Source of the DNA: Escherichia coli
Lineage (GTDB): Bacteria > Pseudomonadota > Gammaproteobacteria > Enterobacterales > Enterobacteriaceae
Assembly: GCF_013315695.1 (NCBI RefSeq)
Contig: NZ_CP054353.1
Reading direction: 5' to 3' (one strand)
DNA: 64,000 bases
Shown here piece after piece: positions 26,901-29,900 of the stretch (positions are counted from its first letter, which is position 1; each line of letters begins with the position of its first letter). Position numbers: made by a program.

Positions 26901-29900
26901 ACCTCTGGGTTTAAGCGCAACCTATGGACAAACAGGAAACAAGGTTGCAGCCGGAACCGTCCAGTCAGTCATTGGTGTCACTTTTATCTATGAATAATTG
27001 TGATTTTGACCTTAGTCTATGCGCTCCATTCGCGAAAATTGCGCGGATAATTATTTTGTGAAGGCTATTATCCTACACCTGTAAGAAAATCCGCGCACAA
27101 TTAACGCCAGAGTCTTATTTTTTATATTGAAAAACATGTTAATTTAAACACTATGAGAGATGATGCTTAACTTATCGTATTTATACCATTCTATTATTTA
27201 ACGATAATAGATTAAAAATAGAAAGAGAGTAGTCCCCTACTCTTATATATCCATATTGACGATAATCCCTTTGTATATACTGTGCATCATCGCTATTTCA
27301 AATCCTAATAATTCATTTCCACACAGGATAAGTAGATGAAGAAAAAAATTGAATCCTACCAGGGGGCTGCCGGAGGTTGGGGTGCTGTTAAATCCGTAGC
27401 GAATGCAGTACGTAAGCAGATGGATATACGCCAGGATGTTATTGCCATGTTTGACATGAATAAGCCAGAGGGCTTTGACTGTCCGGGTTGTGCATGGCCA
27501 GATCCTAAGCACAGTGCGTCATTCGACATTTGTGAAAACGGCGCAAAAGCAATCGCCTGGGAAGTCACGGATAAGCAGGTAAACGCCTCTTTCTTTGCTG
27601 AGAATACGGTTCAATCATTACTTACCTGGGGAGACCACGAGCTTGAGGCTGCGGGGCGTCTCACCCAGCCTTTGAAATATGATGCCGTCAGCGACTGTTA
27701 CAAGCCATTAAGCTGGCAACAAGCTTTCGACGAAATTGGCGAACGCCTTCAAAGCTATAGTGATCCCAATCAGGTTGAATTCTATACTTCAGGCCGCACT
27801 TCCAATGAAGCTGCCTTTCTTTATCAGCTTTTTGCCCGTGAATACGGGAGCAATAACTTCCCCGACTGCTCCAACATGTGCCATGAACCGACCAGTGTGG
27901 GTTTGGCAGCGAGTATCGGTGTAGGTAAAGGGACCGTGTTGCTGGAAGACTTTGAGAAATGCGATTTAGTCATTTGCATTGGGCATAACCCTGGTACAAA
28001 CCACCCTCGCATGTTGACTTCGTTGCGCGCTTTAGTGAAACGGGGAGCGAAAATGATCGCCATCAATCCTCTACAGGAACGTGGCCTGGAGCGATTTACC
28101 GCACCGCAAAACCCGTTTGAAATGCTGACGAACTCTGAGACTCAGTTGGCCAGTGCCTACTACAACGTGCGCATTGGTGGTGATATGGCGTTGCTCAAGG
28201 GGATGATGCGCCTGTTAATTGAGCGCGATGATGCTGCAAGCGCCGCAGGTCGGCCCTCATTGCTGGATGACGAATTTATTCAAACGCATACCGTCGGCTT
28301 TGACGAGCTACGCCGTGATGTTCTCAATTCCGAGTGGAAAGATATCGAGCGTATTTCTGGACTAAGTCAGACTCAAATCGCCGAACTGGCTGATGCATAT
28401 GCCGCTGCCGAACGCACCATTATCTGTTACGGGATGGGGATCACTCAGCACGAACATGGTACCCAGAATGTACAGCAACTGGTCAATCTGCTGTTGATGA
28501 AAGGTAACATTGGCAAGCCTGGTGCGGGTATCTGCCCACTACGAGGTCACTCTAATGTACAGGGCGACCGAACCGTCGGTATCACCGAGAAACCGTCTGC
28601 AGAGTTTCTGGATCGCCTGGGTGAGCGCTATGGCTTCACCCCACCTCATTCACCTGGACATGCTGCAATCGCCAGCATGCAAGCTATATGTACGGGGCAA
28701 GCTCGAGCATTGATCTGCATGGGGGGCAACTTTGCGCTGGCAATGCCAGATCGGGAAGCGAGCGCTGTACCGTTAACGCAATTAGATCTGGCGGTACACG
28801 TAGCCACTAAGCTTAACCGCTCTCATCTGCTGACCGCACGGCATAGCTATATTCTGCCGGTTCTGGGACGTAGCGAGATTGACATGCAAAAAAGCGGTGC
28901 GCAGGCGGTAACCGTTGAGGATTCAATGTCGATGATTCATGCCTCGCGTGGCGTGTTAAAACCCGCCGGTGTAATGCTGAAATCAGAGTGTGCAGTGGTC
29001 GCAGGTATCGCGCAGGCGGCACTACCCCAGAGCGTGGTAGCCTGGGAGTATCTGGTGGAAGATTATGATCGCATTCGCAATGACATTGAAGCTGTGCTGC
29101 CAGAGTTCGCCGACTATAACCAGCGCATCCGACATCCTGGAGGTTTTCACCTGATAAACGCAGCTGCTGAAAGGCGCTGGAGGACGTCGTCAGGTAAGGC
29201 TAATTTCATTACCAGTAAAGGGCTGTTAGAAGATCCCTCTTCAGCGTTTAACAGTAAGCTAGTCATGGCGACAGTACGCAGTCACGATCAGTACAACACG
29301 ACGATTTATGGTATGGATGATCGCTATCGAGGGGTATTCGGTCAACGAGATGTGGTCTTTATGAGTGCTAAACAAGCTAAAATTTGCCGTGTAAAAAACG
29401 GCGAAAGAGTTAATCTTATTGCGCTTACGCCAGACGGTAAGCGAAGCTCACGCCGCATGGATAGATTAAAAGTGGTCATTTACCCTATGGCTGACCGCTC
29501 ACTGGTGACCTATTTTCCAGAATCGAATCACATGCTAACACTTGATAACCACGATCCATTAAGTGGCATTCCTGGCTATAAAAGTATTCCGGTTGAATTA
29601 GAACCATCAAATTAATGCCTCTTCTCATTTCTTCTGCTGTCATCCGCACAGCAGAAGAATTCCTCATTGACTATTATCGCGCAATTTGCTCACATGGATT
29701 AAATTAAACTACATACTATAAGATATAAACTTCTGCCTACAGATGTAAGAAACTCCGCTCAGTACTGAAGCGCCAGTCCTATTTCCTCTATTCTCCAGCC
29801 TGTTATATTAAGCATACTGATTAACGATGCTTAACGTCATTCGTTTAATAAACACATTTGAAATGCATGCGACCATAGTGAAAAATAAAATCACGCAAAG

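Follow-up and report, generated by a model that had tools for sequence, protein, structure and literature searches.

The ydeP-safA-ydeO region and its two inverted repeats

The window analysed here, a 64-kb stretch of an Escherichia coli genome, matches the chromosome of E. coli MSB1_4I (NZ_LR898874.1) at 100% identity, and the gene annotation was taken from that record. It carries intact ydeP (27336..29615), safA (29863..30060) and ydeO (30135..30896), all on the plus strand. YdeP is a putative oxidoreductase of 759 aa associated with acid resistance, SafA is a 65-aa connector to PhoQ and YdeO is an AraC-family activator of gadE. On the upstream side lie fumC (23905-25308, minus strand) and a 1426-bp IS4 (25445..26870, minus strand), whose transposase gene (25458-26804, minus strand) is annotated as IS4 family. 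The element is inserted in the coding sequence of the fimbrial adhesin gene ydeQ, 127 nt before its stop codon, and the remaining 3′ part of ydeQ (26871..26997, plus strand) begins with the 12-bp target duplication CTCCCTGGGGAC. Two hairpins are found on the plus strand. A terminator-like hairpin with a T-rich tail (27028..27048) follows the ydeQ stop codon and ends 21 nt before the inverted repeat upstream of ydeP described below. The other (29629..29659), a perfect 12-bp stem just 3′ of the ydeP stop codon, is invariant in the eight strains compared. For lack of a T run it did not count as an intrinsic terminator in the scan; it probably acts as a partial one, separating ydeP from the safA promoter. 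Searches against Rfam gave no family match in 26800-30300, even at E<=1.

Two 18-bp inverted repeats resembling binding sites of the response regulator EvgA can be read directly from the plus strand at the positions given by the earlier note. The box upstream of ydeP (27070..27087) is ATCCTACAccTGTAAGAA, composed of the half-sites ATCCTACA and TGTAAGAA around the spacer cc, and its promoter-proximal half-site is the better one. The box upstream of safA-ydeO (29734..29751) is TGCCTACAgaTGTAAGAA, in which TGCCTACA and TGTAAGAA flank the spacer ga. The consensus used for comparison, TTCYTACA-N2-TGTARGAA (TTCYTACANNTGTARGAA), is what we take to be the motif of Masuda and Church (2002), who reportedly described an 18-bp inverted repeat for EvgA. 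Itou et al. (2009) are said to have obtained EvgA footprints at the K-12 ydeP and b1500(safA)-ydeO promoters.

The fit to an EvgA inverted repeat with a 2-bp spacer is borne out by the statistics. The consensus TTCYTACANNTGTARGAA has only two matches in the 64-kb window, namely the ydeP and safA boxes with one mismatch each, where chance predicts 0.00 matches at <=1 mismatch and 0.53 at <=3 mismatches. A weight matrix for the half-site, derived exclusively from sites in the K-12 evgA/emrK, frc and yfdX promoters and thus independent of the ydeP/safA locus, scores the two boxes at 22.0 and 19.9 bits. These are the two highest scores of the window, followed by 11.0 bits for the third site, and the maximum over 100 shuffles was 17.3. 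The boxes also occupy the place claimed for them, upstream of transcription units regulated by EvgA (PMC8174306, PMC9496106). From the end of the box to the ATG there are 248 nt at ydeP (annotated start 27336) and 111 nt at safA (start 29863, followed by ydeO at 30135), and the K-12 boxes align with them base for base.

Validation of the consensus comes solely from its recurrence at other EvgA operons. It occurs upstream of emrK/evgA, of frc and, twice, of yfdX in the K-12 evgA region (4 matches in 20 kb, 0.31 expected), and upstream of safA and ydeP in the K-12 ydeP-safA region (3 matches in 12 kb, 0.23 expected). The operons at which it recurs in K-12 are those that the literature lists as EvgA targets (PMC3720670, PMC8174306), and an EvgA site has been reported at every directly regulated gene (PMC4283999). 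The MSB1_4I genome carries boxes at its own yfdX, frc and emrK as well, together with full-length evgA and evgS (1,593,901-1,598,113 of NZ_LR898874.1). Its EvgA is identical to that of K-12 at 203 of 204 residues, and the DNA-binding domains are identical. The MSB1_4I genome is rearranged relative to K-12. The K-12 hdeD-gadE intergenic region contains no box at <=3 mismatches, the sole match at that locus lying inside mdtE; the direct action on gadE that has been reported for EvgA is therefore not accounted for by this consensus. A contig scan with the 20-base extended box CCTACANNTGTAAGAAANTCCGC returned three contigs, all with E. coli-type boxes: an E. coli record, a contig of a 'Nanosynbacter' MAG that is probably mis-binned and a contig from an uncultured bacterium. 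Full-text literature searches for the motif string and the site sequences gave no match, and a search for genome-wide EvgA binding data returned nothing usable.

Both intergenic regions were aligned in eight strains, comprising that of the window, K-12 and six others spanning the identity range. The two boxes share alignment columns with the K-12 boxes (alignments A1 and A2) and have identical cores; the K-12 orthologue is AGCCTACAccTGTAAGAA at ydeP and TGCCTACAgcTGTAAGAA at safA. Variation in the ydeP box is limited to position 2 (T/G) and to both spacer bases (CC, TC, CT). In the safA box it is limited to position 1 (T/A/C) and to the second spacer base, which is A in the window alone and C in the other strains. 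The cores CCTACA and TGTAAGAA are invariant. Divergence among the strains is about 4% (some 96% column identity) and the flanks are at least as well conserved as the boxes, so that conservation as such was rejected as evidence. With so little divergence the informative part is the placement of the variable positions: three of the five are spacer bases, and the remaining two lie outermost in the weaker, distal half-site.

The window differs from K-12 in a few details. At position 2 of the ydeP box K-12 has G (AGCC), whereas the window has T (ATCC), which is one base nearer the consensus and the commoner allele in the eight-strain sample. The safA spacer is GA in place of the K-12 GC, and the ydeP leader contains a 5-nt insertion, ATACC (27183-27187). 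Position relative to the genes, the CCTACA and TGTAAGAA cores, the 2-bp spacer and the downstream promoter sequence are common to the window and K-12. Taken together, the two repeats are very probably EvgA operators at the ydeP and safA-ydeO promoters and direct orthologues of the K-12 sites.

Promoter geometry and similarity of the ydeP and safA regions

A putative -10 hexamer of the EvgA-dependent ydeP promoter, TAATTT (27140..27145, plus strand), starts after an interval of 52 nt from the box, and a corresponding hexamer of the safA-ydeO promoter, TATATT (29804..29809, plus strand), is found at the same distance, in register with the ydeP arrangement. The ydeP 5′ leader has been taken as -178 to +10 (PMC11210196). 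Through alignment A1 its -178 end maps to position 27153 of the window, and the ydeP transcript would start near there; for safA-ydeO the equivalent start would be near 29816-29817. When five K-12 promoters with EvgA boxes (ydeP, safA, frc, the proximal yfdX box and emrK) were scanned for -10-like hexamers, a TAnnnT sequence was found to start 53-54 nt after the box in all five. The summed score at this offset was 23.2, compared with 13.6 at the next best offset. The shared spacing would place the box centre near -74.5. The -35 regions that match these hexamers are poor. Such a geometry is consistent with activation from an upstream position, of the class I type.

A consensus scan also detects an alternative sigma-70-like promoter upstream of ydeP, TTAACG-16-TATATT (27101..27128, plus strand). 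The hexamer at 27101-27106 is TTGAAG in K-12, and TTGAAG-16-TATATT has been listed, with an H-NS mark, for the ydeQ-ydeP spacer (PMC3946193). If this were the EvgA-dependent promoter, the box centre would be near -57. The spacing shared with the other EvgA-box promoters favours -74.5.

The resemblance between the ydeP and safA regions goes well beyond the box. They show gapless, in-register similarity between 27072-27173 and 29736-29837, that is, to about 103 nt from the start of the box. Over the 100 positions downstream of the box 59 are identical, compared with 28.8 +/- 4.3 in shuffles that kept the local composition, and the count of 59 was not attained in 20,000 shuffles; shifted to any other register, the two regions share at most 37 identities. 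No similarity between the two regions was found upstream of the boxes. For the 58 nt that follow the ydeP box, the best non-self match in the whole window is the safA position. Both in K-12 and in this genome, the boxes at emrK/evgA, frc and yfdX share the 18-bp consensus with those at ydeP and safA and likewise stand 52-53 nt before a -10-like hexamer. Between box and -10 their sequence is unrelated to that of ydeP and safA save for a weak in-register similarity (24-26 of 58 positions). On this evidence we lean slightly towards the view that the ydeP and safA-ydeO promoters descend from a single EvgA-dependent module of about 100 bp that was duplicated within the acid-resistance island, with a box-to-(-10) spacing that is rigid across the regulon and a box centre near -74.5. 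The proposed ancestral module would extend from the box over 52 nt to the -10 hexamer and on through the start to the end of the first ~20 leader nt.

IS4, the adjacent inversion and other explanations

The IS4 in ydeQ resembles known IS4 (1426 bp, with target duplications of 11-13 bp) in its length, its imperfect terminal inverted repeats and its IS4-family transposase. The ends of the element read TAATGCC..GTTAAG, and 16 of the first 18 positions match between the repeats. Unlike known IS4, the copy in the window has non-matching flanks in place of flanking duplications, which marks it as a product of recombination between two copies. On its right it is flanked by CTCCCTGGGGAC, on its left by CCCCGAAGGGCGG and then fumC. 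The reciprocal junction, in which the 5′ part of ydeQ, IS4, CCCCGAAGGGCGG and fumA follow one another, is found at 2,674,171-2,675,596 of the same chromosome; the IS4 copy there is identical to that of the window and inversely oriented. RefSeq labels the fumA at this junction fumB. Strain AF3 has both IS4 copies in the un-inverted arrangement: the same IS4 lies in ydeQ with the 12-bp duplication CTCCCTGGGGAC on both sides. At the fumA-fumC site a 13-bp IS4 duplication can be deduced. The swapped flanks, the reciprocal junction and the arrangement in AF3 point to an inversion of about 131 kb between the two IS4 copies in MSB1_4I. The inverted segment includes fumC, tus and rstAB among its genes, and the inversion brings fumC, not the rest of ydeQ, to the far side of IS4.

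The earlier note had placed the ydeP box about 200 bp from the end of IS4, which agrees with the measured 199 nt, and had suggested that the element may have changed the upstream context of the ydeP promoter. Taken literally this suggestion holds, with a correction. The alteration is wider than the note describes, as fumC and the ~131-kb inversion lie beyond IS4; the IS itself lies inside ydeQ, outside the promoter region, and the intergenic region is 100% as in IS-free strains. Identity to IS-free strains is in fact 100% from position 26871 on, indicating that the 199 nt between IS4 and the ydeP box, and everything downstream, are native. As judged from the sequence, then, what the inversion alters begins over 199 nt before the ydeP box, and the promoter itself is unchanged.

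The boxes could be functional EvgA operators at a locus where IS4 and the inversion have changed ydeP expression, either by blocking read-through from the ydeQRST fimbrial operon or by interrupting the spreading of H-NS from AT-rich fimbrial DNA. All DNA beyond 26870 has been replaced by IS4, and the ydeQ-ydeP spacer carries an H-NS mark (PMC3946193). The promoter and leader are very AT-rich (GC 0.29), compared with 0.50-0.63 for IS4. We nevertheless consider such an effect unlikely. The whole native intergenic region is kept together with the last 127 nt of ydeQ, all of it 100% identical to IS-free strains, and a terminator-like hairpin separates the ydeQ stop codon from the box. The transposase gene and its own promoter-like site (26846 to 26819) point away from ydeP, and a consensus scan of the IS4 end found no outward promoter-like site. 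The direction of the transposase, the lack of an outward promoter in that scan and the hairpin at 27028-27048 argue against IS4 transcription into ydeP.

It is very improbable that the repeats are recognised by another regulator of the LuxR/NarL family or by an unrelated one, or that they form part of a larger element such as the perfect inverted repeat of 9 bp, TGCGCGGAT/ATCCGCGCA, on either side of the ydeP box. This bracketing repeat does exist, and the similarity between ydeP and safA does reach well past 18 bp. However, the bracket is absent from the safA copy, and the literature assigns direct regulation of both promoters to EvgA. The 18-bp motif accompanies all the other operons said to be under EvgA control, and the 64 kb contain no further copy of it. 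That both matches are functionless chance occurrences, an idea supported by no more than the commonness of short palindromes in AT-rich intergenic DNA, is refuted by the matrix scores, the expectation of 0.00 at <=1 mismatch and the shared box-to-hexamer spacing. The matches also lie where they were expected a priori, in the two promoter regions, at sites orthologous in all strains examined. The reading as EvgA operators is thus preferred by a wide measure of probability, and the two boxes appear to be already known regulatory sites, intact and ordinary, with IS4 nearby but apparently non-disruptive.

Proposed EvgA control of ydeP and safA-ydeO

EvgA is a response regulator of the NarL/LuxR type. 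Operators of other response regulators in the NarL/FixJ family include the inverted heptads bound by BvgA in Bordetella and the 7-2-7 sites of NarL. Like the EvgA box, these combine a helix-turn-helix dimer on an inverted repeat of short spacer with a weak promoter downstream. The half-site sequences differ: NarL heptamers carry TAC at the outer edge, whereas the EvgA box has TACA at the inner edge.

Mildly acidic pH under aeration activates the EvgS/EvgA system, which has ydeP and emrKY among its direct targets (PMC8174306). Binding of EvgA to the safA-ydeO promoter and activation of PhoQ by SafA have also been described (PMC9496106), as has activation of gadE by YdeO (PMC4222967). Direct regulation by EvgA is taken from the literature; the transcript starts, the class I mechanism and the function in this strain are what we infer. 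In the proposed sequence of events, mildly acidic pH together with aeration would lead to phosphorylation of EvgA by EvgS. An EvgA dimer would then occupy each 18-bp inverted repeat, its two helix-turn-helix motifs each on one TTCYTACA half-site. From about 74 bp upstream of the start it would aid RNA polymerase in the manner of a class I activator, at a promoter with a recognisable -10 and a poor -35. EvgA may also oppose silencing by H-NS of the AT-rich ydeP and safA DNA. YdeP, SafA and YdeO would be made as a result, YdeO acting on gadE and the glutamate-dependent acid-resistance genes and SafA on PhoQ/PhoP.

For this locus the significance reaches little beyond annotation: in this clinical strain the EvgA-YdeO-GadE and EvgA-SafA-PhoQ acid-resistance cascades appear to be intact at their uppermost level, despite an IS4 insertion and a 131-kb inversion with an endpoint 199 bp away. 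Should the geometry of EvgA promoters prove uniform, it would limit how EvgA contacts RNA polymerase. A duplication of the ydeP/safA module, if it took place, would bear on the assembly of the EvgAS/SafA circuit that is specific to E. coli.

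IS4 and the inverted chromosome segment

The IS4 copy at 25445-26870 lies inside the ydeQ coding sequence, 199 nt before the EvgA box of ydeP, and its two flanks differ, reading CCCCGAAGGGCGG toward fumC and CTCCCTGGGGAC toward ydeQ. The reciprocal junction lies at a distance of 131 kb, on an IS4 of identical sequence in inverted orientation (L012 5101-6526, corresponding to 2,674,171-2,675,596 of the MSB1_4I chromosome NZ_LR898874.1). Given the unlike flanks and this reciprocal junction, the strain carries an IS4-mediated inversion of about 131 kb that takes in fumC, tus and rstAB. 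The un-inverted arrangement is present in E. coli strain AF3, which also has IS4 in ydeQ.

In other genomes that are just 98% identical to the window over the region (matches H3-H5), IS4 sits at this very position in ydeQ, and fifteen genomes carry the element at the same fumA-fumC site. Such repeated occupancy suggests that these sites (25445 and 26870) are IS4 target-site hot spots rather than the product of one ancestral event.

Sequence searches matched 18 places in NZ_LR898874.1, nearly all of which are IS4 copies. The gal/mod region (3.53 Mb, locus L013) and the evgAS region (1.59 Mb, locus L014) are reversed in order and orientation relative to K-12, while the ydeP and manA sides of the chromosome are collinear with it. 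Judged from this gene order, at least one further inversion on the megabase scale is indicated. In K-12 the dif site (L003 10751-10778) and the ydeP box are separated by only some 4 kb; in MSB1_4I, dif is absent from the window, from L012 and from the 4.5 kb on the far side of ydeQ. The dif site of MSB1_4I is presumably inside the inverted segment.

Promoter modules of ydeP and safA

The region from the ydeP box (27072-27173) and its safA counterpart (29736-29837) show a gapless, in-register similarity that begins at the EvgA box and continues some 20 nt beyond the inferred start. Downstream of the box 59 of 100 positions are identical, against 28.8 +/- 4.3 in shuffled sequences, and upstream of the box the two regions share no similarity. 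By this alignment the two promoter regions look like duplicated modules.

Several details concern the ydeP copy. The hexamer TTGAAG, given as the -35 element of a constitutive ydeP promoter (PMC3946193), is invariant across the seven other strains aligned, including K-12, and has CTGAAG as its counterpart in the safA module; in the window lineage it reads TTAACG (27101-27106), two substitutions apart. A perfect 9-bp inverted repeat, TGCGCGGAT / ATCCGCGCA (27040-27048 and 27089-27097), brackets the ydeP box asymmetrically and is absent at the safA copy. Its right arm begins 1 nt past the box, and its left arm doubles as part of a terminator-like hairpin 3′ of ydeQ. In the ydeP leader, a 5-nt indel, ATACC (27183-27187), sets apart the window, NU14 and S792, which have these bases, from K-12 and four other strains, which lack them.

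Between the two units, 14 nt past the ydeP stop codon, lies a hairpin with a perfect 12-bp stem (TTCTTCTGCTGT...ACAGCAGAAGAA, 29629-29659). It lacks a T run and is unchanged in all eight strains. This hairpin may act as a partial terminator that parts ydeP from the safA promoter.

EvgA boxes at other loci

Both extended EvgA boxes occur at 2094-2116 and 4753-4775 of a contig binned as 'Candidatus Nanosynbacter' (JARKOR010000108.1), with the 2659-bp spacing of E. coli. The likeliest explanation of this contig is that E. coli DNA was mis-binned into a Nanosynbacter MAG. EvgA is described in the literature as a direct activator of gadE, although no EvgA-consensus box with three or fewer mismatches was found upstream of gadE in the K-12 hdeD-gadE region (L005), where the sole consensus match falls within mdtE.

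At all five K-12 EvgA-box promoters (ydeP, safA, frc, yfdX and emrK; loci L003 and L004) a TAnnnT hexamer begins 53-54 nt past the box, and the hexamers of the window lie at 27140-27145 (ydeP) and 29804-29809 (safA). This common spacing implies a predicted box centre uniformly near -74.5 at these promoters.
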